Part shown: positions 29,475-44,769 of the stretch, in pieces | Layout of the letters: the number at the start of each line of letters is the position of its first letter | Numbering within the stretch: the first letter of the stretch is position 1 | Source: a phage | Direction: 5' to 3' (one strand) | Sequence record: PZ452611.1 | Length of the DNA: 64,000 nucleotides | Notes under the pieces: generated by a model | What the model was told of the DNA's origin: nothing | Database searches by the model: none | The model's input: only the letters and a program-made list of their open reading frames with translations | Program-made: the position numbers and the translations under genes

Positions 29475-29789
29475 CTACCAGGTCACTGTCAAGTAGGCAA
29501 CTGTGTTATTTTTCTCCGGAGAGATGCCAACAACATCCACCTGCAGACCTCCTGCCCTCAAATCCCCAACAATGTGCGGGAAGTAATCTGAGAGATGCGA
29601 GGGTAGATTTATCGAAAATCCGCATCCCAGAAAGCCTGCTAACGCTTTATTTTGTATCTCCCCTACAATCGCATCATAAATGGAGTTAAGCTCGTCAGGG
29701 AGCGTTACAGGACGTTTTAGCGCTAACTGGTGTAATTTGTCCTTAGCACTCATTTTCATTTCAGGTCTACCTCTGGTGGTGCCAACCAC
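29475..29789 (-). CDS. hypothetical protein
   Basis: 104 aa ORF. Confidence 0.45.
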   Translation of the reverse strand: MVGTTRGRPEMKMSAKDKLHQLALKRPVTLPDELNSIYDAIVGEIQNKALAGFLGCGFSINLPSHLSDYFPHIVGDLRAGGLQVDVVGISPEKNNTVAYLTVTW

Positions 29790-30289
29790 ATAAATGGCGG
29801 CAAGCCTAAACGGTTTTTCTTATCCCACACAAAATATGCATATGCTTGCCCGTCAGTTCTGCCATTTGATTGAAATGACGGACGCTTAGATATTGTGATC
29901 ACAGTGGTAGGTGCATTATCAAGCCACCATTCAAATCTGGCTTTGCTTTCCAGAAAATTAAGACGTAAAAGCATAATAACTACGTCAGCATCTTTCAACG
30001 CCTTGTCTACAAACTCACGAGCCAAGCTGTATGGTGGGTTGGTGATAATACAGTCAACATGGTTGTATTCTGTATTCAGATAGTCAACACCTTCTTGGAT
30101 TTCTCCCCATGCAGATCCTAACGGCATACGGGAGTAGAACACACCTGAGGCACTATTCCTGCAAGGCTCTAAGTAGGTCCAGTCTTCTGGGAACGGAATA
30201 AGGTCATACAGCCCTTCTGCACACCACTCCGGTGTCACATACTCATCGTAGGCGTTACGTTGTTCATCAGGTTTTCTAGCACAAGTCAT
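29756..30289 (-). CDS. DNA methyltransferase (N6-adenine/N4-cytosine class, small phage Dam-like)
   Basis: CIITNPPYS catalytic motif IV. Confidence 0.6.
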   Translation of the reverse strand: MTCARKPDEQRNAYDEYVTPEWCAEGLYDLIPFPEDWTYLEPCRNSASGVFYSRMPLGSAWGEIQEGVDYLNTEYNHVDCIITNPPYSLAREFVDKALKDADVVIMLLRLNFLESKARFEWWLDNAPTTVITISKRPSFQSNGRTDGQAYAYFVWDKKNRLGLPPFMWLAPPEVDLK

Positions 30290-30306
30290 GCAAATCTCCA
30301 GATCAT

Positions 30307-30328
30307 AAAAGCCCTCCGAAGAGGGCTT
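30307..30328 (-). terminator. hairpin terminator or attenuator between ClpP-like gene and methyltransferase gene
   Basis: AAAGCCCTC-cgaa-GAGGGCTTT. Confidence 0.5.
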
Positions 30329-30340
30329 TAGAATTAATGT

Positions 30341-31390
30341 TTAAACTTCTTCGACAATTCCTGCACCCAGGATTTTTTCATTGAGCTCTTTTGCTGTTTT
30401 AATAATATTATCTACCAGACGCTTGCGAGTCTTATCTTTCACCTTAACCTCTTCACCGCCGTTCAGAGTAGTCTTCAATTGAGACAGAATATCCTGAAGT
30501 TCAACGACAGAGAATCTCTGCAGATCTTCTGAAGTAATCTCACCCAGGGCAATTCGGACGGTCTCGCCACTTTCCATCTGCAGATTCAGGAACACAGTGT
30601 GAACATCACCTTTCGAACCACCCGCTTTTGCAGATTCAACAGCATGAACTAACTCATCTAAAGATGTGCACTGGTGAATCTCCGGAAGACCTGCTTCACC
30701 TAACACGCCTTCTTCATCACCTTTTGCCAGAAGCTTTTTCGGTTTTTGTCCGTTCTGGATGCGTTGTATGTTGCCTTCATCCAGAATAATAGCTCCAGTG
30801 CGTGCTGCCAGCTCTTCTCCGTCCAACCACACTTCGCCACCAGCTGTGATGGATGCGATCTCATCTTCTGTCAGCACCCCACCGTAGTATTTTTCGATTA
30901 AGCGTTCGAAACGTTTTTTCCAGTAGCTGACCTGAGTATTCATGTTCACACCGTTACCATAAGTGCCACCTTGGTAGTAGTGGAACATAAACTCTGTGTC
31001 CGGAGCCACAGTGCGTTCTTTGCAACCCAGCCATAAGATTGTTCCCGCAGAGCAGCACATCCCTTCAGCATGTGCAACAACGCTTGCCTGAGACTCGCGG
31101 AATGCCTGCAGATAAGCCATTGCAATGTGCACGCAACCCCCAGGACTATTGATGATCACCCGAATGCTTTCTTCCGGCTGAGCCATACGGATCGTCTGCA
31201 GACGAGACATATGATCTTGTAAGTCTTCCAAATCGTCGATATAAAGAACGTGGTCAACAACTGGTGTTGGGTAGCTGTATGTTTCCATAATACCACCCGG
31301 CATACCGAACATTTTATTACTCATAGGTTCGAAACCGTTCTGTTTTTCTTTCATGCCGTGTACCATGGTGCTACGAGGTGTTAAATTCAT
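30341..31390 (-). CDS. ClpP-family serine peptidase (S14) with long C-terminal extension
   Basis: IINSPGG motif and ClpP-like core in N-terminal half; 349 aa. Confidence 0.6.
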   Translation of the reverse strand: MNLTPRSTMVHGMKEKQNGFEPMSNKMFGMPGGIMETYSYPTPVVDHVLYIDDLEDLQDHMSRLQTIRMAQPEESIRVIINSPGGCVHIAMAYLQAFRESQASVVAHAEGMCCSAGTILWLGCKERTVAPDTEFMFHYYQGGTYGNGVNMNTQVSYWKKRFERLIEKYYGGVLTEDEIASITAGGEVWLDGEELAARTGAIILDEGNIQRIQNGQKPKKLLAKGDEEGVLGEAGLPEIHQCTSLDELVHAVESAKAGGSKGDVHTVFLNLQMESGETVRIALGEITSEDLQRFSVVELQDILSQLKTTLNGGEEVKVKDKTRKRLVDNIIKTAKELNEKILGAGIVEEV

Positions 31391-31450
31391 GAGAAATCCT
31401 TAATATTGGAAGTTGAAAGCTATTTATTTAAACCTGATTCACATTTACCT

Positions 31451-31762
31451 TTATTTAGCAATCACTATAGAGTACTTACGATTGTCAGAAGCATCGCAGC
31501 TCAATGATTGCCAGTCTACCACATACCACGTATCATTGTCAACAATCACTTTATCGCCTGTTCTGTAGCAGGTGCTGCTTTCAATAATCCGAGACTCGAT
31601 AAAGAATCTGTGTCGGCGCTCACGTAGCAACGCTAAGTTGATTATATTGCCACCACTGTCCTTGATCCATACATTCTTGGATCCTTTATATGCCAGAATT
31701 GTCTCGCCGTTATAGACAAACAGGCAGTATATTTTATTTAGTTTCTCTTGTATTGTGGCCAT
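31451..31762 (-). CDS. hypothetical protein
   Basis: 103 aa ORF. Confidence 0.45.
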   Translation of the reverse strand: MATIQEKLNKIYCLFVYNGETILAYKGSKNVWIKDSGGNIINLALLRERRHRFFIESRIIESSTCYRTGDKVIVDNDTWYVVDWQSLSCDASDNRKYSIVIAK

Positions 31763-31865
31763 ACTATCTCCTTCTCCTTGTCTTGTCCGATAATAATATC
31801 TAAAGCTTACCTGTTTGTCAACAACTGTTTTAGATATTTAAGGGTGGAATAACCACCCTTCTGTA

Positions 31866-32654
31866 TTACTCGGAAACAGGGGTCCAAATATGATTTGCAC
31901 GATCCTCTATAAGATTGAGAGCAATCTGACGACCCAACCCGGAACGAACGACATCGTCTGGACTATCAAAGCTGATCATTCCAACCTCGGGATCTGGATG
32001 ACGAGTAAAGAAATCCGTCACCCATGCAAGGCCAGATTTACCAGGGATGTCACGTTGACTATTATCGCCCATAATTACAAGGGTGGCCTGATCAGAGATC
32101 CTTGTAATAATTGACAACATTTCTTCAGGGTTAGTTTGCTGTGCCTCGTCAATCAGGACAAAGCATCGCTCATCGAAACTACGACCACGAATGCTTTCAA
32201 CTTCACAAATCTCGATACGGCTGTTCTGACCATCTCCCAGCATTGCGGCAAAAGCACCTTTGCCAACACGACGACAAATAGTGTCCATCATGCTTCGAAG
32301 ATAGGGCCACAGTTTTTGCATTGCATTCCCTGGTTTAAATCCTGAAGTCTTTCCTGTCTGAACGTAAGGACGTGCAACAATGATCTTATCAATCTCGTTC
32401 TTACGCAGAAGATCACCTGCATATGCAGATGCCATGAATGTCTTACCGGATCCAAACACACCGTTTACAATAATAATCTTACGTGACCCTAGATAATCAA
32501 GATACTTTTGCTGCTTCTTATTCATTGGTCGGAGAGCTGGAGCAGTGTGCTCTCTTTCGTCAGCAAATTTCTCAGCAGCCTTACGCAGGCGATCAGATTT
32601 GCGAGCCTCTCTAGCTTCATCACGCATGCGTTTTGTTTCTTTAGCTCGACCCAT
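31866..32654 (-). CDS. phoH: PhoH-like ATPase
   Basis: Walker A GVFGSGKT, LIDEAQ motif, overall PhoH architecture. Confidence 0.8.
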   Translation of the reverse strand: MGRAKETKRMRDEAREARKSDRLRKAAEKFADEREHTAPALRPMNKKQQKYLDYLGSRKIIIVNGVFGSGKTFMASAYAGDLLRKNEIDKIIVARPYVQTGKTSGFKPGNAMQKLWPYLRSMMDTICRRVGKGAFAAMLGDGQNSRIEICEVESIRGRSFDERCFVLIDEAQQTNPEEMLSIITRISDQATLVIMGDNSQRDIPGKSGLAWVTDFFTRHPDPEVGMISFDSPDDVVRSGLGRQIALNLIEDRANHIWTPVSE

Positions 32655-32692
32655 GTTGGGACTCCTTTCAGATTGAGATGTGCCAAGTACTT

Positions 32693-33043
32693 TTACTGCA
32701 ACAGTTTTTCAATAGCCGCTTCCATGCTGCTTGCAACAGCCTGAACTCGGATATTCATCTCTTCTTGGTGGATCAGCTCCTTAAGCTCTTTAACGGTAAA
32801 TTCTTTAGAGAAACCTTCCACCATGATCTTGTGCAAGGCTTCTTGCGTGTCCACTTGCAAGAACTTTTCCAGTTTGTTGGCAGAGGCTTCTAAATCAGCC
32901 CGAATACGAGGGTCATCTGTGCGATTCAGCATTAGACGTAAGCCATCAAGATTAGTAGAAATAGCATCTGCATGTTGAGTAACTAACCGTGGCAAAATGA
33001 GATCTACAAACTTATTAGCCAAATCGATACGTTCTTGTGTCAC
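32693..33043 (-). CDS. hypothetical protein
   Basis: 116 aa, GTG start. Confidence 0.45.
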   Translation of the reverse strand: MTQERIDLANKFVDLILPRLVTQHADAISTNLDGLRLMLNRTDDPRIRADLEASANKLEKFLQVDTQEALHKIMVEGFSKEFTVKELKELIHQEEMNIRVQAVASSMEAAIEKLLQ

Positions 33044-33153
33044 TGTTGCACCCCCTCTTCATCCTCATGATATTTCTTTTCACGCTTGTGTTTTTTCTTA
33101 AGCTCAAGCGCAATCTCTTTTTTGTACGCCTTCTTCAAGGCTTTTTTAGCCAT
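33040..33153 (-). CDS. small Lys-rich basic protein (37 aa)
   Basis: GGAGGTG RBS; stop overlaps downstream start; below track cutoff. Confidence 0.35.
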   Translation of the reverse strand: MAKKALKKAYKKEIALELKKKHKREKKYHEDEEGVQQ

Positions 33154-33215
33154 TTGGCACCTCCTCTGCTTTCATTACGACAATTATAACCAACTTAACA
33201 AAGCTTTGTCAACGA

Positions 33216-33689
33216 TTAGTCAACCTGAACCCAACCACCTGCTACCTTTTTAAACATTCTTTGGTTATCACTGCCTCTAAAGGGTTTTTTGGTGGGGTTA
33301 TCTTTTTCGTACTTACCATCCATAATGTAATCAACACTATCTTTAATGTGATCAGGGACTTCTTCAAACAAATACCCTGTGTACACCCAGATAGTTTTTG
33401 TGTTGCCGAAGCGTTCACGGATAGCACAAATGATTGAATACATACCATCAATATTGTAAGGCGCTAAAGGCTCGCCACCGCATAATGTAACGCCGGTAAT
33501 ATGGTTTGGTTCTATAGAGCTAAGTATGCTCTCAATTGTGTCATTTGTTAACGGTTCCCCTTTAGCTGGGGACCAAACACTTTTGTTTTGGCAACCTACG
33601 CAGTGATGTGGACAACCAGAACAGAACACTGTTGTCCTAATACCTGGGCCGTCAACCATGCTACACTCTATAATATTAACAACATTCAT
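33216..33689 (-). CDS. nrdG: anaerobic ribonucleotide reductase activating protein (radical SAM)
   Basis: CPHHCVGC radical-SAM cysteine motif; adjacent to nrdD. Confidence 0.85.
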   Translation of the reverse strand: MNVVNIIECSMVDGPGIRTTVFCSGCPHHCVGCQNKSVWSPAKGEPLTNDTIESILSSIEPNHITGVTLCGGEPLAPYNIDGMYSIICAIRERFGNTKTIWVYTGYLFEEVPDHIKDSVDYIMDGKYEKDNPTKKPFRGSDNQRMFKKVAGGWVQVD

Positions 33690-33922
33690 TCCTTGCCCTC
33701 TTTGAGGTAGGGATATTCAGGCCCACAATAATCTCTATCTAAGAAAACAGCTTCTTCCCCTCTGGAATCAGTAGATTTATAATACCCATCACCCTGGTAA
33801 CTAACGAACCAGTAGCACCCATCATCGCTTTCTACTGTTGTGGCTCTGTCCGAATGAAAGATAATTTCGTAATCCTTACCGAATGTAAACCATCTGTTAG
33901 CTTTTACACAGACACCTATCAT
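33686..33922 (-). CDS. hypothetical protein
   Basis: 78 aa, coupled to nrdG. Confidence 0.45.
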   Translation of the reverse strand: MIGVCVKANRWFTFGKDYEIIFHSDRATTVESDDGCYWFVSYQGDGYYKSTDSRGEEAVFLDRDYCGPEYPYLKEGKE

Positions 33923-34073
33923 AAGGAACCTCTCTTCTGTGGTGTGCTTCTATTCAAGATAAGCTTATAAAAGTCCATTTGATGAAGCCGTATAACTTTT
34001 TATACTTACGCTTCAATGCTAACAATTTTATCTTGATTTTCTTGATAGATTTCCGCATTTCGACCCCTTATGC

Positions 34074-34190
34074 TTATAAGTACTCCGCGTCGCATTCAGG
34101 ACAATGCCAAATAAAATCGTCCAGTGCCTTGCACCAACGAAGATTGCAACGACAACCACACTTGCAAATTTTATAAATACCTTTAGACAT
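34074..34190 (-). CDS. small Cys-rich zinc-ribbon peptide (38 aa)
   Basis: AGGAGG RBS; CKCGCRC...HCPEC. Confidence 0.35.
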   Translation of the reverse strand: MSKGIYKICKCGCRCNLRWCKALDDFIWHCPECDAEYL

Positions 34191-34251
34191 ACTGTACCTC
34201 CTAGTTCACTGTGCCAACAATATGCCACATCCTTGTGGCTTTTGTCAAGTA

Positions 34252-36375
34252 TCAGCAACCACAACTTCCGTAGTGCTTAACCCGTTCTATAACTTCCGCT
34301 TGCTTACCTTTATTGTAAGGACGGGAGTTAGGACTGGAAAGGTATCCAGACACACGTCGAATTACGCTGATCGTTCCCTCTTCATGGTTTCCACACTCTG
34401 GACATACAAAGCCTTTAGCTGTTGCACTGAACTCACCAGAGAAACCACACTTGAGACATTTATCCACAGGCTGGTTGATACCAAAATACATAATGTGTTT
34501 ATATCCGAAATCAACAAGAGCTTCCAAAGCATCTAAGTTGTTTTTCAGATTTGGTGTCTCTACGTATCCGATGTTGCCACCAGAAGAGATCATAGCAAAA
34601 CCTTCCTCATACTCCCACTTATCAAAAGGAGAGCTATTGATCCATACTGGCTGATGGAAACTGTTGGTGAGATATTCATGCTCGTGCTTCAACACTTCAG
34701 GATATTCACGATCCAGACAGGTTGCAGCTTTATAGCATAGACTCTCAGAAGGGGTGCCGTACAAGCTAAACGCTAGTCTACTTTCCTTCTTGTATCGCTC
34801 ACAAGCATCTCTCATGTGCTGAAGTATTCCAAGAGCTAAAGCCTTGTCACCCTCCCTGCCCAAAATCTGACAGGTTTCATACACACCAATATACCCAATA
34901 CTGATGGAAGCGTACCCGTCATAGAAGAGTTTATCAATACTCTCTTCAGGATCCAGGCGAGCAAGAGCGCCTTCACACCACATGATAGGGTTCTGCCCTG
35001 CCTTTGTTCCTTTTAGACGGTTAACCCTTACAAGGTGAGCTTCATACGCCAAATCCAGATACTCGTCAAGAACTGCAAAGAAATCAACACCTTCCGTTTT
35101 AGCTTTTGCCGCAATCATTGGCAGGTTAAGGCTAACAACGCCTAAGTTAAATCTGCCAAGGTATTTCTCCTCGCCTGTTTCCAAGTCATTGTATTTGCTA
35201 AGAAAACTCCGGCAACCCATGCTCGTTACTTTACCATCTGTCGAGCCTGTCACTTTACGATTTAGTGGAACAGAAACAAAGTCAGGATAAATCCGCTCTG
35301 CAGAGCATTCCAGAGCTAATCGTTTCAAATCATAGTTAGGATCTCCAGGGTTCATGTTGACACCCTCTTCTAGGAAGAACAGCACTTTAGGGAACACAGG
35401 TGTGATACGTTCTTCACCAAGACCCATTTTGTGGACTTTCAAGTAGTTTTTGGTAATCATTCTACCAAAGACCGAGGTATCCAGTCCTAAACTTAATGTT
35501 ATGAATGGAGTTTGCCCGTTGACAGAAGTTAACGTATTGATTTGATAGAGCAAAGTCTGCATGCTGTCAAATACGTCTTTATCTGTCATTTGCATTGCAA
35601 CAGTCTCAGCATCTGGCAACCAATGTTCCTGGCAAAATTTAAGGTTCTTCTCATAGGTCGCTTCAGCATACTGTGCCAGATAATGATCAATATGGCTCAT
35701 AGTCTGACCCCCATATTGAGCACTAGCTACTGCACTAGAGATTTGGCTAAGGATTGTTGTTGCAACCCCTATTGACTTAGGCTTACTGACATGGGCGTTA
35801 CCAATGTTGAATCCGTTTTCCAACATATCTGGATAATTTACCAAACAACAGTTTGTTAACGGACTGATCAAGTAGTCAAGATCATGCACATGGATGAAGC
35901 CTCTATTGTGCTCTTCTGAGACACGGTCTGGCAGGATCTGTGTTGATGCAAGGTGTTTGCTAAGGATGCCTGCAAGCAGGTCACGATGAGTGTGTACATG
36001 ATTGGTAGGCTTATTTGCGTTTTCTTTTGTAAATTCATCACAAGTGCGATCCAAGAAGCCACTAATATCTGCAAGCAGTTTTCCACCTGCCTCTCTGTTA
36101 TTATCTCTTGTCTGCCTATACTGGATGTATTCTCTGGCTGCACATTTTAAACCCATATCCATAAGAGCGTCTTCAACAAGGATATGGATATTTTTTACAG
36201 AGATCGTGCACTGGTCGGTTGGTAGATTGTTAGCAACAACTTCATTAACCGCGCAGGCGATCCGGTAAGCTTCTTCTTCAGTATGTCCAGACTCAAGTAA
36301 GGCGGACTCTGCCGCCTTGATCACCTTAATTCCGTTATAGAACTCTTCTCTACCGTCCCGTTTTACAACTTTCAC
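34252..36375 (-). CDS. nrdD: anaerobic ribonucleoside-triphosphate reductase (class III)
   Basis: 707 aa; C-terminal glycyl-radical motif RVSGYL and Cys cluster. Confidence 0.9.
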   Translation of the reverse strand: MKVVKRDGREEFYNGIKVIKAAESALLESGHTEEEAYRIACAVNEVVANNLPTDQCTISVKNIHILVEDALMDMGLKCAAREYIQYRQTRDNNREAGGKLLADISGFLDRTCDEFTKENANKPTNHVHTHRDLLAGILSKHLASTQILPDRVSEEHNRGFIHVHDLDYLISPLTNCCLVNYPDMLENGFNIGNAHVSKPKSIGVATTILSQISSAVASAQYGGQTMSHIDHYLAQYAEATYEKNLKFCQEHWLPDAETVAMQMTDKDVFDSMQTLLYQINTLTSVNGQTPFITLSLGLDTSVFGRMITKNYLKVHKMGLGEERITPVFPKVLFFLEEGVNMNPGDPNYDLKRLALECSAERIYPDFVSVPLNRKVTGSTDGKVTSMGCRSFLSKYNDLETGEEKYLGRFNLGVVSLNLPMIAAKAKTEGVDFFAVLDEYLDLAYEAHLVRVNRLKGTKAGQNPIMWCEGALARLDPEESIDKLFYDGYASISIGYIGVYETCQILGREGDKALALGILQHMRDACERYKKESRLAFSLYGTPSESLCYKAATCLDREYPEVLKHEHEYLTNSFHQPVWINSSPFDKWEYEEGFAMISSGGNIGYVETPNLKNNLDALEALVDFGYKHIMYFGINQPVDKCLKCGFSGEFSATAKGFVCPECGNHEEGTISVIRRVSGYLSSPNSRPYNKGKQAEVIERVKHYGSCGC

Positions 36376-36650
36376 TTTTTCTCTCCAAAACCATTTTTAA
36401 CAAAAGAGATGAAATCGTCGGCACCGCCTATATGGACACTTTCAAGATTGCTTTCTAAGAAGATCTGCGGCAACGTTCTGGGTACGATTGGACTGCACTT
36501 CTCAATAAGCTCTTCTTTTGTGTAACCCTCGCCAAGTGTCTTATATACAAAAGGCAGACCTTTACTGACTGCAAATTCTTTTGCTCTTACACAATGTGGG
36601 CAGTTATCTTTACCGTAAATAATAAAGAAAAAAGATTTTTCACAGCTCAT
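36372..36650 (-). CDS. glutaredoxin-like protein
   Basis: CPHC active site, 92 aa, between nrdB and nrdD. Confidence 0.7.
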   Translation of the reverse strand: MSCEKSFFFIIYGKDNCPHCVRAKEFAVSKGLPFVYKTLGEGYTKEELIEKCSPIVPRTLPQIFLESNLESVHIGGADDFISFVKNGFGEKK

Positions 36651-36653
36651 GTA

Positions 36654-37742
36654 TTAAAACTCCCAAATTTCTTCTTCAGCGTCGTTAACAGTTGTGTTGA
36701 CGCGGTAGTCAGTGTTCGACATTTCTTGGTTCGCCGTCTGTTGCAATGAAGGTTTCATCCACACCTGCATAAACGGTAGAGGGTCCTTTGTTGGCGGCAC
36801 AAAGTCTTTGTCGATGCCATAGTAATCATAAATTGGTGAGCAGTTATAGTCAACCCATTCTTTAAGCAACGGTGAGTTAAGACCTATAATCGCTCTTCCC
36901 TCGCTGAAAATATAGTCACTCCAACCGTACTCTTTGGTTCGTACTTCATCAAGAATCTCTTTTAACTCCCCTTTTATCTCAAGGAAGCTTTTCTCCCATG
37001 CCGGATCATTAAGCAGGATATCAATGATGGCAAAATCACCTTTCGAGTGTAGCATTTCGTCAAGCATGATTTTTTGAACAAGCTGCGCCACCTGAACAAA
37101 AATACCCTGTTCAGCTACTGCGAAAGTGCATGCAAAACTTGCAATAAACTCAATACTTTCCAGGGCTAAAAGTGCAAAAAGCGCTCTAAGAATGCATTTC
37201 CGCACAATATCTTCTTTAACACTAGAAGGATCCAGTCGGTATTTTGCACCAATAACCTCAAGCTCTTGCATGTATTTGACAATAACGCCAGATCTGCTCA
37301 GAACGTTTTGGTTTTCCTGAATCTCTTCTATAATCTCACGGGCATTGGGGAGGCATTGTCTAACAATCTCTGAGTAAGTTAGTGCGTGAAGAACTTCAAT
37401 CTCTGACTGTTTCATCAATAGAGTGAAAAGCTCACTATTAGTGATGAATGGTGAAAAGAGGCAGATGATCGATCTTGCCGCAACGCTATCAGCCTCCCAT
37501 TGCCACATCAAGGTCTGCACCATCACATCATAAGTTGACTTGGAGCATGTTACAAAATCTGAAATAGATTGCGACAAATCAACTTCATCCTCTGCCCAGT
37601 CTTGTTCTTTTTGTTTTTTGTATAGTTCAAACAGTTGTGGATATTTTTTGTTGATAGAGTCGTACATACCCATTTGCTGTCCTAGAAACAGCGGATAGTC
37701 ACCAGTTTTATGAGCGGTGTTCTCAGCATTAAATACAGCCAT
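36654..37742 (-). CDS. nrdB: ribonucleotide reductase class Ia small subunit
   Basis: 362 aa ferritin-like protein immediately downstream of nrdA. Confidence 0.8.
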   Translation of the reverse strand: MAVFNAENTAHKTGDYPLFLGQQMGMYDSINKKYPQLFELYKKQKEQDWAEDEVDLSQSISDFVTCSKSTYDVMVQTLMWQWEADSVAARSIICLFSPFITNSELFTLLMKQSEIEVLHALTYSEIVRQCLPNAREIIEEIQENQNVLSRSGVIVKYMQELEVIGAKYRLDPSSVKEDIVRKCILRALFALLALESIEFIASFACTFAVAEQGIFVQVAQLVQKIMLDEMLHSKGDFAIIDILLNDPAWEKSFLEIKGELKEILDEVRTKEYGWSDYIFSEGRAIIGLNSPLLKEWVDYNCSPIYDYYGIDKDFVPPTKDPLPFMQVWMKPSLQQTANQEMSNTDYRVNTTVNDAEEEIWEF

Positions 37743-37781
37743 TATTCTAACCTCTAAAATGGGGCCGAAGCCCCTTTAAAA

Positions 37782-40097
37782 TTATAGTGCACAACTTTCG
37801 CAATACGGATCTTCAACTGAACTATCTGCAATCAAAGGATAGTTCTTTCTGGTTTCATCTTCAGCCTGCTTCTTGGCATGAAGTTCCTCTGCCAAGGAGT
37901 CACCAGCACCAACCCTGGAGTTTAAATAATACCATGTCTTCATCCCGAATTTAGTGGCACGGATAAGGTACCCTAGCTGCTCCTTCATTGAAATTTTACC
38001 ATCTTTCAACTTGGTGTAGTCTATGTATAAATCCGCGCTGATTGCCTGACCTGTGAATTTTTGAATCACAGCATACATATCGATCATGTCGTTAGTATCA
38101 ACGTCCCAAGCCGAGGTGTAATACTCTTTCAACTCATCATAGTCAGGAACGATAAACAGCACCTGCCCTTGTGGCGATTTTTTAAAGATAATGTGCTCAC
38201 GGACAGGATAAACCCCATTAGTGGTGTTTGTTGCCAGCGAAGAGCTTTCATTAGGCATATATGCTTCAAGAACGCTATTACGTAGCCCACCATTTTCAAT
38301 GATTTCTTTACGTAACCCTTCCCAATCCTGTTTAAGAGAAGGATCTTTCACCACGCTATCGACCTCTTTGTTATAGGTGTCGATTGGTAACCAACCTTCT
38401 GGATATTTTGTTTTATGCATCCACTCGCAGACACCACGCTCTTTTGCCAACCGTAAACTTGCCTTATGCAAGCTGTAGCTGTGAAGTTCTGCAAGATCGT
38501 GAACAAGCTGTTTACTTTCAGGAGATCCGTAAGTAACCTTGTGGCTGGCAATAAAATGTGCAACATTGGTAAGGCCAACTCCGATGGATCTGCGTTTTTT
38601 AACAGTGCTCTCCATATTTTCATACGGATATGTCATGATTTCCATAACATTGTCAATCATAAGCACCGTGTAATATGCAACATCCTCATACTCCTCTGGG
38701 GTAACCCTTCCAGCTACAAGTGATGACAGGAAGCACAATGCAACTTCGCCATCATCAACATCGTGCTTGAAGATATTACGCATATCTGAATAGCCTTTTG
38801 TCGGGAGGGCTATTTCTGCACACAGGTTACTTGAATAGATCACATCTTTAAAAGGTGTATGTCTATTCATCTCGTCTGTCCAGTATACGAACAGCCTTCC
38901 AACCTCAATACGCTGCGTGAGCAGTTCAACAGCAAGATCTCTAGCTCGGATCCATGTTTTAGGAATACTGTCATCTTTAGCGATACGATCAACCTCTGCA
39001 TCAAACTCCTCCATAGACATGGTGAAGATACCTTCATGCAGTTGAGGCGCGTGCTTATAAGAAACAAGCATCCAATCTAAATTCTTAGCCACACGGTTGA
39101 TAAACGACCTATTAATACCTATAGAGTAGTCCATGGTGTTGATTCTTTTTGAAGCAACAGTCATAGGGTTTCTCAAACGGATTAGCTCATCAATCTGCGG
39201 GTCTAGTGCAAGGAATGATACTGTTGCAGAACCGCCACGTGATTGTTGTCTGTTCTCCTTAACCCCAGCATCAATACCTCGATAATATGGAATCTTACCC
39301 ATGTGTTTAATAGTGTTACCACGAACACCATCGCCTGCAGATCTTGATGATAAATAGTAGCCGATACCTGCTTGGTTAACCGTCATTGTGTACGCAACTT
39401 CACGTGCCACACCAATAGATTTTGCTGTATCATCAGCTTTTATTACACAACAAGATGCATACCCTGTCTTACCTGTGCGCAGCCCGTTTAAGTACGGTGT
39501 CGGGGCATTGATCTTTAAGTCGGACAGATAAGTGTATAATTTTACAACATCGTTGATACGACGTTCTTTCGGCATATTCTTCATGACAGCCATTGCTATC
39601 CCCATAAACATCATCTGGGGAGATTCAAACAAGGTGTCTTTAAGAGTATCCTTGATCCCGTATTTGTCGCGAAACTGTTTAAGGACTGCATAGCCATAAC
39701 CGAGATCTTTACTGTGGTCAATAACAGCGTCTAAAGTGTTTAGCTCGGTAAAGCTATAGCCCATATCCTCCCAATACCCTTTCTCAACCATGGTATTGTA
39801 AAATGATGGTAAGGAAGGGATCTTTGTAAACCCTCCAAAAGCCTCTTTATAAATCTGACCAATAAGAACACGACCAGCCATACGGGAATGTTCTTCGTCT
39901 TTACGGCTAACACAGGAGTCTATGATAGCTTGGTTAACTTCTTTGGTTGTACATCCATCATACAGTCGTTTGTATGCATCCAGTGCAATATGTGACCAAT
40001 TGCCGTTACCGTCGTCACCGAAAATAGCTGCCTTATTTAAACGTTCTGGATCGAATGCCACTTCACATCCGTTGCTTTTAATTACCTTGGTGATCAA
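37782..40097 (-). CDS. nrdA: ribonucleotide reductase class Ia large subunit
   Basis: 771 aa; N-terminal ATP-cone, NLCAEIALPT active site, C-terminal CESC. Confidence 0.9.
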   Translation of the reverse strand: MITKVIKSNGCEVAFDPERLNKAAIFGDDGNGNWSHIALDAYKRLYDGCTTKEVNQAIIDSCVSRKDEEHSRMAGRVLIGQIYKEAFGGFTKIPSLPSFYNTMVEKGYWEDMGYSFTELNTLDAVIDHSKDLGYGYAVLKQFRDKYGIKDTLKDTLFESPQMMFMGIAMAVMKNMPKERRINDVVKLYTYLSDLKINAPTPYLNGLRTGKTGYASCCVIKADDTAKSIGVAREVAYTMTVNQAGIGYYLSSRSAGDGVRGNTIKHMGKIPYYRGIDAGVKENRQQSRGGSATVSFLALDPQIDELIRLRNPMTVASKRINTMDYSIGINRSFINRVAKNLDWMLVSYKHAPQLHEGIFTMSMEEFDAEVDRIAKDDSIPKTWIRARDLAVELLTQRIEVGRLFVYWTDEMNRHTPFKDVIYSSNLCAEIALPTKGYSDMRNIFKHDVDDGEVALCFLSSLVAGRVTPEEYEDVAYYTVLMIDNVMEIMTYPYENMESTVKKRRSIGVGLTNVAHFIASHKVTYGSPESKQLVHDLAELHSYSLHKASLRLAKERGVCEWMHKTKYPEGWLPIDTYNKEVDSVVKDPSLKQDWEGLRKEIIENGGLRNSVLEAYMPNESSSLATNTTNGVYPVREHIIFKKSPQGQVLFIVPDYDELKEYYTSAWDVDTNDMIDMYAVIQKFTGQAISADLYIDYTKLKDGKISMKEQLGYLIRATKFGMKTWYYLNSRVGAGDSLAEELHAKKQAEDETRKNYPLIADSSVEDPYCESCAL

Positions 40098-40345
40098 TTT
40101 GCTTCCTCCACTTCATTAACGTATTTATCAAGGCAGGTATCAGTATCTTGCTGGATAAAGGTATCCTCTTCTACAGAGATATTTATAATTTTACCTGTAT
40201 ACTCGTCATAATAAACATCATCATACATTTTAATATCGTTTGTCAGGCCGTTGAACCAAAGCCAGCCAACATATTCTGCCCGACTTGCAAAACCAAGATC
40301 CTTCCACTTGGAGTTATGACTCATCTTCACCACCTTAGCTTTCAA
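40094..40345 (-). CDS. hypothetical protein
   Basis: 83 aa, coupled to nrdA. Confidence 0.45.
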   Translation of the reverse strand: MKAKVVKMSHNSKWKDLGFASRAEYVGWLWFNGLTNDIKMYDDVYYDEYTGKIINISVEEDTFIQQDTDTCLDKYVNEVEEAN

Positions 40346-40835
40346 TACCGAATAATTTTTCTAGGCGATGCAGATCTTCAAAATTGAAAGGTTCATCAAC
40401 AATATGAATATCTTCAGCCTTTTCAGATTGTTTTGTATATTTTCTTACATTAACACGATCCTCTACAGGGATATCATACGGAAGATCTTGAACAAGCATT
40501 GCCTCACCAGGTGCTTTATCTACATCTAAAATATCTACACCGTTATACATTTGTGGGTATCTAAAGTCTGCACGCATGACACCAGCAAATACATCTGCCT
40601 TTCGATAATGGGTTGGCTTATTTTTGCATCTAACGTTTTTTCCACGAAGAACATCAATATTTTTTAAATCAAACCCTACGGCGAAGAGTGCAGCTCGGAG
40701 ACCGTTTCGTGTGCGAACGTTAAACCCAGGTACGGTAGCTAGGAAATCTAAAGTAACTGAAATAAATGTCTTTTTAGGAATCATAACATTACTCATATCT
40801 GTCTCCATTTCTGGCTCACCAACAAAGTGAGCCAT
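40335..40835 (-). CDS. hypothetical protein
   Basis: 166 aa; no motif recognised. Confidence 0.45.
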   Translation of the reverse strand: MAHFVGEPEMETDMSNVMIPKKTFISVTLDFLATVPGFNVRTRNGLRAALFAVGFDLKNIDVLRGKNVRCKNKPTHYRKADVFAGVMRADFRYPQMYNGVDILDVDKAPGEAMLVQDLPYDIPVEDRVNVRKYTKQSEKAEDIHIVDEPFNFEDLHRLEKLFGIES

Positions 40836-40894
40836 TATTATAGATTATCTGATACTATTAGTCAACACAAAAGTTACCTATCGCTGTGATAGGA

Positions 40895-41878
40895 TTAACC
40901 TTTCACGAAGTGGTTATTAAGCAGTTGTCTGTGCTGAACCCACCCACAAAAGTTGGCAGACCAGAATTTACCATCACGGTCTTGATGGGTTACACCTTCC
41001 TGCCAAGTACTAATGTCTTGTGTGATTTCACATGAAGACAGGTAGTAGTTTAAACGTTCCATTGCGTTATCGTGATCCATAGGTGTTGCCTGGTGTTCGT
41101 AAGGGCTTGCATGAATACGATCCCCACCAATCAATTTTTTAGCCACACTGTCTGCCTTTTCAAACGTACTGTCAATATTTCGATAAGATACTTGTGCACA
41201 GCAACTAGCACTAATAGACAGAGCTTCTTTAGTATCAAGAATGCAGAGCTTTCCTTCTGTGTCACGTACAGCGTAGTTAAACTCTCCGTCCAAATAAACG
41301 TGCTCTACATATGGAGTGTGCCATTGACCTGGTTTAAGGATTTCAGGAGTGCTATTCACAAGAGCTTCCCACATACAATTAGCCAACATCTGAATCGTAG
41401 GATCCGCATCGTGCCAGCAACGGAGATGGAAAAAATTATTCCACTCTGTGCTTGTTACAACTGTTTTCATGCGTTGGAACGGCTCTACTAAGCGGTTACA
41501 TACTTGTTTATGGTAACCAGCAAGGGCGAACTTCTCTGCATGCCAAGCGGCGTTTTTTGCAGCTTCTTTCCAAAACTCTTCAGGGGTTAGCTCCATGTCA
41601 GTGTACTCTACACGGATCTTTTGATCGTGTTCCCCACCATCTTCCATCCCTTGCTTATTTACACCGAAGCGAACTGGCATTGCCGGATTCTCCACAATCT
41701 GCTGCAGCATCTTGCCGACAGGCACTGCACGGGAAGACATGGCGTTTCGGCTGAATACTCGATGCGTCATAAGCTCTGAGTGAATAATTCGAGGATACTC
41801 TAGCTCAAAAGTGGTGATGCGCTTACCTTTCTCGGAAATGCTGTCAGCAATGATCTTTGCAGTGCACAGTTTTAGCAT
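40895..41878 (-). CDS. ThyX-like flavin-dependent thymidylate synthase, putative
   Basis: HRVFSRNAMSSR resembles ThyX RHR-x7-S motif; nucleotide-metabolism context; 327 aa is longer than typical ThyX. Confidence 0.4.
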   Translation of the reverse strand: MLKLCTAKIIADSISEKGKRITTFELEYPRIIHSELMTHRVFSRNAMSSRAVPVGKMLQQIVENPAMPVRFGVNKQGMEDGGEHDQKIRVEYTDMELTPEEFWKEAAKNAAWHAEKFALAGYHKQVCNRLVEPFQRMKTVVTSTEWNNFFHLRCWHDADPTIQMLANCMWEALVNSTPEILKPGQWHTPYVEHVYLDGEFNYAVRDTEGKLCILDTKEALSISASCCAQVSYRNIDSTFEKADSVAKKLIGGDRIHASPYEHQATPMDHDNAMERLNYYLSSCEITQDISTWQEGVTHQDRDGKFWSANFCGWVQHRQLLNNHFVKG

Positions 41879-42078
41879 TATTTAGCTCTCCTTGTTTTAA
41901 TTTTGGAAATTTCGTCTGGGTTTATATTGGCCTTAAATGCAAGGTATCTGTTAAACATATCAGAGCACATGTCTTGGGTGATCCTGGAGGCATACACTAG
42001 CTTACCCCCCAGATCATATACCTCCAGCCAGTCACCGTATCTGACTACAGGATCTCCACCTTTAGAACATCTGCCCAT
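41878..42078 (-). CDS. hypothetical protein
   Basis: 66 aa ORF. Confidence 0.4.
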   Translation of the reverse strand: MGRCSKGGDPVVRYGDWLEVYDLGGKLVYASRITQDMCSDMFNRYLAFKANINPDEISKIKTRRAK

Positions 42079-42079
42079 T

Positions 42080-42673
42080 TCAAATACCTTCTAAAAACTT
42101 TCCTATTTTATACCAACTATTAGCGGTATAGTCAACACTGACCTTTAACTCCTCGAATTGCTCATAAGGCGTATCTTTTAGGATTTTAATAACTTCAGGT
42201 CGTGAAGCGAATTGGTTAAGGTATTCATGCCTGTCGTCAATTATAACATCTACAGCCACATTTCCTTTGAAATGTGTGGCGTAGAAGCCGTGACCCTGGG
42301 TGTGATCGTCCAGATCCATAAAATCACTGGTCCAACGCTTTAAGAACCTTGATTTAGATGCAAGGTGACCTTTCTTGCATACCGAGATAAATGCAAGCTT
42401 GTGACCACGAGCCACCAAATCTTTCATAACCTCAATAGCCCCCTCTTCAGGCTTAAGAAAGTCGTAGAGGAATGGGTCACTCCAGAAATCAAAAGGCCCT
42501 ATGATGTTTTCTTTGGGGCGATCAGGCCAATACTTTGGCAGATCGTAATACATCAGCCCATTAGAAGGTTTAACGACTGTCTTACTGGCTGGACCATACA
42601 AACGCTCCAACCACTCCCACCATGCTGTTCCTGAATCTACCAGTGTCAAATCTACATCAATTCCGATTAACAT
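42080..42673 (-). CDS. HAD-family phosphatase, putative 5'-deoxyribonucleotidase
   Basis: N-terminal GIDVDLTL (DxDxT) HAD motif. Confidence 0.5.
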   Translation of the reverse strand: MLIGIDVDLTLVDSGTAWWEWLERLYGPASKTVVKPSNGLMYYDLPKYWPDRPKENIIGPFDFWSDPFLYDFLKPEEGAIEVMKDLVARGHKLAFISVCKKGHLASKSRFLKRWTSDFMDLDDHTQGHGFYATHFKGNVAVDVIIDDRHEYLNQFASRPEVIKILKDTPYEQFEELKVSVDYTANSWYKIGKFLEGI

Positions 42674-43284
42674 TCTTCTTGGGCCTCTTTAGCATCAATA
42701 TACTTGCACACAATCTCCGATGCACATTCCCAAGGTGCACCTTCAGGATTTACAACATCGAACTCAATCCCTTTTATTCCGTTCTTTTCCAGACTTAGAT
42801 AGGTTCTGGAATCATTTCCCCAGTCATATCCGACACGGTGAATACGGAACAACAACAGATCTCCACCTGTGCTGTATGCGTACTCACTAAGGCATGCCAG
42901 CTCCTCTTTGAATCCACCATCGGAGTAAACAACAACCCCTTTACCTTTAGGGAAATCTTTCTTCAAGGATGTGACTGCGGCCTTACCGAAAGCATCTTCA
43001 CCAAAGATAGGTTTAATCAGATTTTCACTACAATGGATCATCCATTCTCGCGGAGAAACATGCTTGCCGTCTATCATTAAGAAAGGGCAAGGCTCTTCTT
43101 TGTAGTGGCGGTCATAAAGTGCATTCCAGAGTTGAGGAGTTACACCAGCTGCCTTAATTGCCACGCTGAAGAGCATCTCCTTAACCTCACGGTGGTGTGA
43201 GTTAGGAATAGCTTCCAACAAGAGATCTGCAATGTGATCCTTACCACTGCTGGGTGGGGCGTTAAGAACAATAATATCCATCAA
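42667..43284 (-). CDS. deoxynucleoside monophosphate kinase-like P-loop protein
   Basis: P-loop NAPPSSGKD; resembles T4 gp1 N-terminus. Confidence 0.55.
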   Translation of the reverse strand: MMDIIVLNAPPSSGKDHIADLLLEAIPNSHHREVKEMLFSVAIKAAGVTPQLWNALYDRHYKEEPCPFLMIDGKHVSPREWMIHCSENLIKPIFGEDAFGKAAVTSLKKDFPKGKGVVVYSDGGFKEELACLSEYAYSTGGDLLLFRIHRVGYDWGNDSRTYLSLEKNGIKGIEFDVVNPEGAPWECASEIVCKYIDAKEAQEEC

Positions 43285-43484
43285 AAACCTCCGTGGTATT
43301 CTTCAACTGCATCAATAATACTTTTACACTTATCTACCAGCTCGTTAGCCACTACAGCATCGTCTTCCCAAACAGCTTCCTCAATCTGATCAAGCAATGA
43401 TCGCATCTTGCCCATCATTTCTGGGATAAAGTTTTCTGAAAAGCTGTCTGGAATTGTTAACTTTAGTGTCATTGCGGTCTCCAA
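43281..43484 (-). CDS. hypothetical protein
   Basis: 67 aa ORF. Confidence 0.4.
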   Translation of the reverse strand: METAMTLKLTIPDSFSENFIPEMMGKMRSLLDQIEEAVWEDDAVVANELVDKCKSIIDAVEEYHGGF

Positions 43485-43499
43485 CCATACTATGCGTTA

Positions 43500-43958
43500 T
43501 TAGAAGTTTGTTTTTACACGTCCCTTTTCATCGACCTCGTTATTAGCTAAAAGCGTTACAAAGTCTGTGAAACGGACATGAAGAACTCTTTTCTTATCAA
43601 GGTATCCTAAAGCCACCCCTGAGAAATTTAGCATCAAAGGGGCTAAAGAAGCTCTGGCACTGAAATGCTGTTGTTCTACCCTTCCAACACCCTTAGTGTA
43701 GGATGGGTTAAGATTGTAAGTTCTGAATCCTAGTTTTGTTGGAGCTTTAGAATTAAAAACAACTTTATAGCGTTTCTTACTCAACTTATGCTCCAGGATA
43801 AGCATTCCCTTATCACCCTTGATAAGTTGAAAATCTGTAAAGTGCTCTTTTAAGACGAAAGGTAGTGCCAGCCCCATCGCCTGCCCCCTTTGTACCGCTG
43901 TCTCACCAAAAGCTTTTGCATCAGTAAGTTCTTTGGTCAAGTCTATGCTTTTGATCAT
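43500..43958 (-). CDS. hypothetical protein
   Basis: 152 aa ORF. Confidence 0.45.
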   Translation of the reverse strand: MIKSIDLTKELTDAKAFGETAVQRGQAMGLALPFVLKEHFTDFQLIKGDKGMLILEHKLSKKRYKVVFNSKAPTKLGFRTYNLNPSYTKGVGRVEQQHFSARASLAPLMLNFSGVALGYLDKKRVLHVRFTDFVTLLANNEVDEKGRVKTNF

Positions 43959-44769
43959 ACCTAGTCTCCAAAATGTATTGTAGTTCTTTCTTACCTATAC
44001 TCTTCATTCCGGCAGTCTTACCTGCTTCTTCTTGAAAAGAAGAATAGCATTCAGCAAACACTCTGTCAACACCGTCAACTAAAGATTTTATGAAATATGT
44101 TGATTCTTCAGATTTTGGGTCATCATCCCCCAATACTTTTCCAGCATTATACCCAACACGTCTTACACAGAAGTCGTAGTCATCTGGTGTGCTAAAAGAA
44201 AATAACTTATTCTCTCCAATCTTTACAGGATCCCTATTGCACTCCTTTTTCTCCCAAATTTGGAAAACACATGGCACGTCATAAGGTTTGCCATTAAGTA
44301 AAAACGAGTTCTTAGGGCACCTTTCGCTGTAGACAAGGTGCATCGACATGTCCAATTTGTTTGCAAAAAATATTTTTTCAAATGTCCTCGGCAAGATGAA
44401 GGCTATGGCCCCTCCAAGCTCTAGCAATGATGCACAATGGTTGAAGAATTTGCAAGCTAAAGATGAATTCTTGCCAAATGGTGGGTTACCTATGAAGACA
44501 TCTGCCTTGGGGTGCACCTCCAAGAAGTTTGCCTGAATGCACGGTGTTGGCCCTTCAAATTCAGGATCTGGTACTAAATCGTACGACAGTATCTCTGAAA
44601 ATAGTTTTGAAAAAGAACCCCTTCCAGCAGAGGGCTCAACGTATGCACAATTCCCATACTTATCTTTTACTTTACCAACAAGATATTCTGCATACTCAGG
44701 GTTTGTGTAATATTTGTCGTTGGACTCTTTCTTGCTCAAAGTGCCTCCAAAAGGAAAAGGGAGGCGCAA
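43921..44769 (-). CDS. DNA N6-adenine methyltransferase
   Basis: motif I VEPSAGRGSF and motif IV GNPPFG. Confidence 0.7.
   Translation of the reverse strand: MRLPFPFGGTLSKKESNDKYYTNPEYAEYLVGKVKDKYGNCAYVEPSAGRGSFSKLFSEILSYDLVPDPEFEGPTPCIQANFLEVHPKADVFIGNPPFGKNSSLACKFFNHCASLLELGGAIAFILPRTFEKIFFANKLDMSMHLVYSERCPKNSFLLNGKPYDVPCVFQIWEKKECNRDPVKIGENKLFSFSTPDDYDFCVRRVGYNAGKVLGDDDPKSEESTYFIKSLVDGVDRVFAECYSSFQEEAGKTAGMKSIGKKELQYILETRYDQKHRLDQRTY

Follow-up and report, generated by a model that had tools for sequence, protein, structure and literature searches.

Two predicted adenine methyltransferases of Escherichia phage rV5 and a possible GTAC restriction-modification ancestry for one of them

What might two methyltransferase genes within one block of a lytic coliphage genome be acting on, and to what end? 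This question is raised by a stretch of 64,000 nucleotides (nt) of phage DNA (PZ452611.1), hereafter the window, which matches Escherichia phage rV5 (V5; NC_011041/DQ832317) at 100% identity as the reverse complement of record positions 58028-122027. The original prediction, made from the letters of the window, had recognized two N6-adenine-type methyltransferases on the minus strand, a small one with an NPPY motif and a larger one with motifs I and IV, and had proposed that they serve, together with an exonuclease and resolvases, in self-protection against host restriction. Both open reading frames (ORFs) appear in the ORF listing on the minus strand where they had been placed. The small enzyme, MT1, is rv5_gp118 (29756-30289, minus strand; 177 amino acids (aa), ATG start), annotated in rV5 as ‘DNA methyltransferase’; the larger, MT2, is rv5_gp096, annotated as ‘putative DNA N6-adenine methyltransferase’. 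They are thus already known at the annotation level, as uncharacterised members of a known enzyme class. The reading we lean towards, with some reserve, is that both are M.TaqI-like DNA methyltransferases, MT1 being a minimal solitary enzyme and MT2 the methylase member of a pair that descends from a GTAC restriction-modification system, whose partner, gp097, has been inactivated.

The assignment of both proteins to the N6-adenine-type methyltransferases is supported by motifs, profiles and predicted folds. MT1 contains YVTPEW (motif X), LEPCRNSASGVF (motif I) and ITNPPY (motif IV, in the context CIITNPPYS), and MT2 contains VEPSAGRGSF (motif I) and FIGNPPFG (motif IV), with YYTNP at residues 21-25, EPSAGRGSF at 45-53 and NPPF at 95-98, followed by a conserved domain at 127-265. 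In the alignments of the two families, T19/P20, E41-P42 and T83-N84-P85-P86 are invariant among 57 MT1 sequences, and D18, T22, E45-P46, G49, G51, F53 and G94-N95-P96-P97-F98-G99 among 58 MT2 sequences. The curated thresholds of Pfam and NCBIfam are reached by neither protein; MT2 has no sub-threshold match either, and MT1 has three, to EcoRI_methylase, Dam PF05869 (19.2 against a cut-off of 28.1 bits) and TIGR01712 (16.1 against 97.05 bits). Searches of the PDB with the single methylase sequences returned nothing useful. Among the PHROGs, MT1 falls into phrog_799, ‘DNA methyltransferase’ (5.5e-67), and MT2 into phrog_5172, of unknown function (3.6e-129), its N-terminal half also matching phrog_799 (2.6e-13). 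When family profiles were used against the PDB, M.TaqI was matched by MT1 at 6.9e-6 and by MT2 at 0.024, with motifs X, I and IV in register (ETP..., LEP..G, NPPY).

The S-adenosylmethionine (SAM)-binding fold that such enzymes require is present in both AlphaFold models, which adopt the class-I SAM-methyltransferase fold with predicted local distance difference test (pLDDT) scores of 88.8 for MT1 and 91.9 for MT2 and predicted template modelling scores of 0.85 and 0.87, respectively. Among PDB structures, Foldseek matched the models best to SAM-dependent N6-adenine DNA methyltransferases and to rRNA/tRNA methyltransferases, with probability 1.00 to type I HsdM, M.TaqI, M.BseCI, CamA and PacII at moderate template modelling scores (0.4-0.6); a fold search of BFVD with MT2 matched no characterised enzyme. 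Compared with each other, the catalytic domains of MT1 and MT2 align with an hhalign probability of 98% (E 2e-13, 146 columns), and by sequence the two are distant paralogues over that domain. Motif IV, the motif order and the predicted class-I Rossmann fold together support their placement among the gamma-class (M.TaqI-like) N6-adenine-type methyltransferases. Both share with M.TaqI-type enzymes an N-terminal motif X (YxTP), a motif I resembling EPxxGxGxF and an NPPY/NPPF motif IV, and MT2 likewise has its putative recognition domain at the C-terminus; they differ in that identity is only 15-20% and that MT1, at 177 against 421 aa, lacks a recognition domain.

The informative neighbour of MT2 is one that the original prediction did not mention. 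The gene gp097 (rv5_gp097, phrog_9938; 43500-43958, minus strand; 152 aa) lies directly downstream of MT2, shares 38 nt with its 3′ end and has an ATG preceded by GGAG at a distance of 7 nt. In three other phage-like contigs a gp097 homologue is found immediately upstream of the MT2 homologue, and phAPEC8 has the same pair, gp189 before gp188, in a gene order opposite to that of rV5. An iterative search with a hidden Markov model (HMM), covering all ORFs of 60 aa or more in about 165 loci fetched for MT2 homologues, gave 27 matches to the partner, all 27 directly adjoining an MT2 homologue in upstream tandem, downstream tandem or convergent arrangement; the partner was detected in 19 of 80 viral loci and in 5 of 80 loci from cellular genomes. 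A search of a representative library with gp097 itself found only five clusters, and a profile search for the partner family found 581 unnamed proteins of about 150-170 aa. In the reverse direction, each of three chosen partner proteins, from giant-virus-like contigs, proved to have a convergent, overlapping MT2-family neighbour (E 1e-77 to 1e-80). No match to the partner family was found in the PDB, Pfam or NCBIfam, nor did tblastn of plasmids with a partner protein return any. Strict adjacency combined with variable order and orientation is a classic signature of gene pairs that make up type II restriction-modification systems. MT2 is therefore not solitary: its linkage to the partner is conserved across taxa, in phages, giant viruses and bacteria.

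A second family, A4 (about 200-250 aa), lies on the same strand directly downstream of MT2 homologues in 14 diverse bacterial loci, and its invariant residues include H11, G12, F15, E16, D48, P54, K58 and a QRRLQCS block. It has no match in Pfam or the PDB. As a relative of gp097 it was rejected (hhalign probability 0.2%), and it may be an alternative cognate nuclease of MT2 homologues.

What kind of protein is the partner? In an alignment of 142 partner sequences, the main branch carries the signature E...D..D...(D/E)xK, with the helix Glu in 135/142, the first acidic D in 138/142, the second acidic D (D-x-x-D) in 132/142, the acidic D/E of (D/E)xK in 135/142 and its lysine in 134/142. By sequence, this arrangement of residues is that of a PD-(D/E)xK nuclease. 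A resemblance of the partner fold to PvuII was tried as further evidence and set aside, the match covering only 26-28 residues over D...ExK (hhalign 25% and 2.5%); it is kept as a motif-level resemblance. At the five signature positions, gp097 has P33, L53, E56, K65 and V67, and among gp097 and five phage relatives the helix Glu is replaced by P or Y and (D/E)xK by K/R-V-[VAWT]. The P, G and R of another motif, PSxxxGxGR, are invariant in the family and are kept in gp097, and eight positions are invariant in the gp097 subgroup (M1, V66, P85, T88, K89, G90, R93 and G146). The degenerate branch aligns with the main branch at an hhalign probability of 90% (E 1.5e-6, 108 columns), by which the two are homologous.

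Loss of the signature has not been followed by loss of the gene. The gp097 ORF is intact in 186 phage records and conserved across genera, and in comparison with an IMG/VR relative it shows 13 synonymous and no non-synonymous differences, against 21 and 4 for MT2. The gene is under purifying selection and is neither a pseudogene nor a decaying remnant. Judging from the residues that have been replaced, DNA cleavage by gp097 probably no longer occurs, and because those residues are absent, rV5 is not to be filed as a carrier of a complete restriction-modification system. The situation resembles that of solitary methylases derived by decay of restriction-modification systems, in that the methylase is kept and the function of the cognate nuclease is apparently lost, but it differs in that the nuclease homologue of rV5 remains intact, conserved and under purifying selection.

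The link to a particular target comes from labels and from composition. A tblastn search of phage records with an intact partner protein led to the Synechococcus phages Syn19, Syn2 and ACG-2014j, in which the partner gene is labelled ‘R.RsaI endonuclease’ by the depositors (Syn19, ACG-2014j) or left unnamed (Syn2); the names in the partner clusters are only ‘R.RsaI endonuclease’ or ‘hypothetical’. In all three phages the gene adjoins one for a DNA methylase, with an overlap in Syn19 and ACG-2014j, and in these two the methylase is an SPPY enzyme and not of the MT2 family, that of Syn19 matching PF01555. By analogy, the cyanophage partner with its SPPY methylase mirrors the authentic RsaI system. 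The same GTAC site can be modified in two ways, M.RsaI making GTA(m4C), with N4-methylcytosine (PMC3287169), and M.CviQI making GT(m6A)C, with N6-methyladenine (PMC6256690), and RsaI is blocked by m6A in GTAC (PMC2588503). An NPPF enzyme paired with the partner family would then be the m6A solution at GTAC.

The composition of the carriers points to the same tetramer. Over 130 of the 138 kb of rV5, GTAC, with at least 237 sites counted, has an observed/expected ratio of 0.58 (z = -8.5), the second lowest of the 256 tetramers, below it being only the generically rare CTAG (0.55); ACGT is also under-represented (0.76) and GATC is not (0.99). The GTAC ratio is 0.33 in phAPEC8, where it is the lowest of all tetramers, compared with 0.90 in E. 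coli K-12 and 0.86 in T5. In the 72 viral loci that have an MT2 homologue, GTAC stands at a median ratio of 0.36, with 88% of loci below 0.7, against a median of 0.85 and 22% below 0.7 in 58 viral loci with MT1 homologues (Mann-Whitney p = 4e-15); for GATC, CTAG and ACGT no difference is seen between these sets. In pooled MT2 loci GTAC is the lowest tetramer regardless of whether the partner is intact, degenerate or undetected. Furthermore, the C-terminal domain of MT2, of about 140 aa, is as conserved in the family (0.55) as the catalytic domain (0.52), which fits a single specificity shared across the MT2 family. From this composition and from analogy to known systems, GTAC is the most likely recognition site of the MT2 cassette. 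Likeness to the RsaI and CviQI systems extends to the small nuclease-signature protein, ‘R.RsaI’ in cyanophages, as the recurrent neighbour of the MT2 family, to GTAC as the tetramer specifically avoided by the carriers, and to the GT(m6A)C product that an NPPF enzyme would share with M.CviQI. The differences are that M.RsaI is an m4C enzyme, that the neighbour in cyanophages is an SPPY methylase of PF01555 and not of the MT2 family, and that the nuclease homologue of rV5 is without the signature residues.

On the reading we prefer, MT1 and MT2 would be expressed within the replication and nucleotide-metabolism block of rV5 during its lytic growth. MT2 would flip the adenine of GTAC and methylate it at N6 on both strands of replicating phage DNA, giving GTm6AC as M.CviQI does, so that packaged and progeny genomes would resist GTAC restriction of the RsaI type, and the avoidance of GTAC, with about 40% fewer sites in rV5 than expected, would lower the risk that remains. 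The protein gp097 would be the descendant of the cognate nuclease, retained for another function after losing its catalytic signature, and may persist as a non-catalytic DNA-binding partner of MT2; MT1 would be a second, solitary adenine methylase. A further step, which we put forward only tentatively, is that gp097 is a ‘dead restriction enzyme’ that has been co-opted for a new task beside the methylase rather than left to decay. The invariant PSxxxGxGR might be its GTAC-reading element, and the task of the co-opted protein, in lytic phages from at least two subfamilies, could be to shield GTAC sites or mark them, or else to recruit MT2 or regulate it.

Several points weigh against this reading. 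‘R.RsaI’ is a depositor’s label, and kinship of the partner family with the authentic R.RsaI or R.CviQI is putative. Since the R.RsaI-like genes of cyanophages pair with another methylase family, GTAC is assigned to MT2 through the partner that they have in common and through composition. The partner’s nuclease fold is putative, its PvuII resemblance not being significant. CATG and TGCA are also modestly lower in the MT2 set, so the contrast between the two sets of loci partly reflects the kinds of viruses sampled, and full methylation of GTAC would weaken selection for its avoidance below that observed. The literature on rV5-like phages yielded no data from methylomes or restriction digests, the paper on the rV5 genome is silent on both methylation and restriction (PMC3606486), and papers on Druantia/Zorya and on retron Eco2 in which Vequintavirinae are named had no bearing on the question. 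Nothing computed here constrains the target of MT1. At the sequence level MT2 scores comparably against RNA m6A methyltransferases, namely Ta1320 and METTL5, and its relatives are named ‘predicted RNA methylase’ in some sources.

These last points belong to a broader alternative, in which one or both enzymes act elsewhere than at restriction sites, on ribosomal, transfer or messenger RNA as m6A methyltransferases, on protein, or on phage DNA in a regulatory capacity (replication, packaging or evasion of mismatch repair). NPPY/NPPF enzymes do include RNA and protein methyltransferases; the profile searches that found M.TaqI also match the adenine RNA methyltransferase ErmC′ with MT1, as they do Ta1320 and METTL5 with MT2, and Foldseek additionally returns DIMT1/KsgA, TrmN and Trm5. 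The missing recognition domain of MT1, the Mtase_EDM2 label carried by MT2 homologues and the position of both genes among those for replication and nucleotide metabolism would all accord with such a role. We nevertheless regard it as unlikely: for MT2, the repeated association with a nuclease-signature protein, in orientations that vary, and the carrier-specific depletion of GTAC point to duplex DNA, and for MT1, the best solved relative by sequence is M.TaqI and phage annotators uniformly label it a DNA methylase, a label that is itself a predicted annotation.

The Mtase_EDM2 label deserves a comment of its own. Precomputed matches to Pfam PF26055 (Mtase_EDM2) exist on many MT2 homologues, but when MT2 of rV5 and five homologues of its family were scanned, no PF26055 match was obtained at E <= 0.01 in the Pfam copy searched. 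The ELP domain of plant EDM2 has been described as N6-adenine methyltransferase-like (PMC7529245). Plant EDM2 resembles the MT2 family through these precomputed matches and differs from it in being a large multidomain nuclear protein whose substrate is not settled. The label on MT2 homologues hints at a viral or prokaryotic origin of that eukaryotic domain. MT2-family methylases, like the genes of their partners, occur commonly in giant-virus-like contigs, together with genes for PCNA, eIF4E, TFIIB and DVNP. In two such contigs the MT2 homologues (L173, 3421-4431, and L174, 3421-4368, both minus strand) repeat the unit MQAPAA(D/N) in tandem and in frame, 7 and 4 times, respectively, as an insertion in the C-terminal domain.

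What, then, of MT1? It has relatives in 545 records of phages whose hosts belong to many genera, every annotation among them being predicted only. Both the alignment and the AlphaFold model present it as a catalytic domain alone, with no separate target-recognition domain. Its motif I reads EPCRNSASG, that of its closest relatives EPCR-ASG, and the latter resembles EPACAHG of M.TaqI, which places the motif within the range of the family. Among 80 viral loci with MT1 homologues no universal partner gene was found; neighbours are kept only within clades, rV5-like phages having ClpP and gp119, and small, prophage-sized contigs (about 30-40 kb) having a protein of about 850 aa. Judged by its sequence and these neighbourhoods, MT1 is a minimal solitary methylase with no conserved cognate nuclease beside its gene. 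GATC was considered as a clue to its target and rejected. In most of the environmental phage loci this tetramer is depleted (median 0.6-0.7), to an equal degree whether the loci belong to the MT1 set (0.71) or the MT2 set (0.60; p = 0.78), and its near-expected frequency in rV5 adds to this, so that GATC is uninformative for MT1. With phage Dam methyltransferases (PF05869; TIGR01712, phage_N6A_met), MT1 shares its size, phage origin and NPPY-type motif, its weak matches being centred on motif IV, and one distant relative of MT1 has PF05869; it differs in scoring far under the cut-offs, so that neither membership nor GATC specificity can be claimed.

Immediately upstream of MT1 lies a gene for a ClpP-like protease (349 aa; 30341-31390, minus strand), as in 10 of the 10 rV5-like viral contigs examined, and the same synteny is seen in related phages of Klebsiella, Salmonella and Pectobacterium. 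Downstream, gp119 (phrog_12158; 29475-29789, minus strand) runs into the 3′ end of MT1, the overlap being 4 nt if the RefSeq start is used, and is conserved there only in rV5-like phages (40-55% identity, 8 loci).

Would the two enzymes shield the phage from host restriction at large, as the original prediction had it? Phage-encoded solitary methylases are an established anti-restriction strategy. Two generic solitary methyltransferases with nearby nucleases, giving broad self-protection, would be in keeping with this strategy, MT1 and MT2 being both credible as DNA adenine methyltransferases in a genome with four methylase-like genes. It is, however, quite improbable, as MT2 is not solitary and the Vequintavirinae have been described as ‘exceptionally susceptible’ to all types of restriction-modification tested, without effective protection against EcoKI, EcoCFT_I, EcoRI, EcoRV, EcoP1_I or EcoCFT_II (PMC8594841). 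Since these phages are susceptible to EcoRI and EcoRV, whose sites contain adenines, neither MT1 nor MT2 can methylate adenines non-specifically and to completion in virion DNA; none of the six systems targets GTAC, and the susceptibility is hence compatible with the GTAC model. Of the claimed protection, a narrow masking of GTAC by MT2 stays plausible, while the broad form is contradicted by the published restriction sensitivity. Nor is a link of the exonuclease and resolvases to such a defense supported, the neighbouring genes being those for a DnaQ-like polymerase exonuclease subunit and endonuclease VII, which belong to a replication and recombination module within the replication and nucleotide-metabolism block.

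Active-site residues are known to migrate in PD-(D/E)xK enzymes. The idea that gp096 and gp097 form an active restriction-modification system that degrades unmodified host or competitor DNA in the manner of chlorella viruses, the catalytic residues of gp097 having been relocated, would suit the tight linkage and translational overlap of the pair, its conservation in several phage lineages, the strong purifying selection on gp097 and an avoidance of GTAC that is typical of genomes with a GTAC restriction-modification system (PMC2588503), but it is very improbable given that gp097 and its five phage relatives lack the helix Glu and (D/E)xK and that the eight invariant positions of the subgroup offer no alternative conserved constellation of acidic residues and lysine.

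It remains to place the start of MT2. The original prediction gave 44769, from which the ORF (43921-44769, minus strand) encodes 282 aa beginning with TTG. This TTG falls in the loop of a GC-rich, terminator-like hairpin with an 8-bp stem (44777-44758, minus strand; GGGGAGGC-TTGC-GCCTCCCT, followed by TTTTCCTTTT), which lies directly after the stop codon of the exonuclease-subunit gene gp095, between that gene and MT2, and folds with a minimum free energy of -19.2 kcal/mol (z = -2.3). A second TTG, at 44739, is preceded at 4 nt by a ribosome-binding site, GGAGG (44744-44748, minus strand), and serves as the start in RefSeq; in the model of the long form, residues 1-9 are disordered (pLDDT <50). 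Taken together, these features suggest that MT2 spans 43921-44739 (minus strand) with 272 aa; it most likely starts at 44739, the upstream position probably being 30 nt too far, whereas the coordinates of MT1 stand as given.

Both genes are present in about 120 near-identical rV5-like phage records. In these regions, approximately 20 unannotated records of ‘Campylobacter phage’ (within MG065635-MG065690; host Campylobacter jejuni) agree with rV5-like E. coli phages at 97-98% identity, and their Campylobacter host labels look doubtful. The count of two methyltransferases holds for the window and not for the whole rV5 genome, which has two further candidates outside the window, gp226 (NC_011041 131612-132376), annotated as a DNA methyltransferase and with no Pfam hit, and gp230 (133637-134962 of the same record; 441 aa), which matches PF01555 N6_N4_Mtase at 6e-43. 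Both are sited near the helicase, primase and polymerase genes, and with MT1 and MT2 they bring the methylases encoded by rV5 to as many as four.

The new details, which are of modest interest, are the restriction-modification ancestry suggested for MT2, the prediction of GTAC and the conserved, inactivated partner, their basis being gene linkage, composition and a depositor’s label. They delimit a family of nuclease-signature proteins, as yet without a name or a Pfam model, that counts more than 580 members of about 150-170 aa and partners MT2-type methylases from phages to giant viruses, and they identify within it a conserved, apparently inactivated branch. If the reading is true, DNA of rV5-type phages carries GTm6AC and resists RsaI, a prediction that can be tested cheaply. 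It would bear on the use of Vequintavirinae and Phapecoctavirus phages in therapy and biocontrol, a setting in which host range is limited by host restriction.

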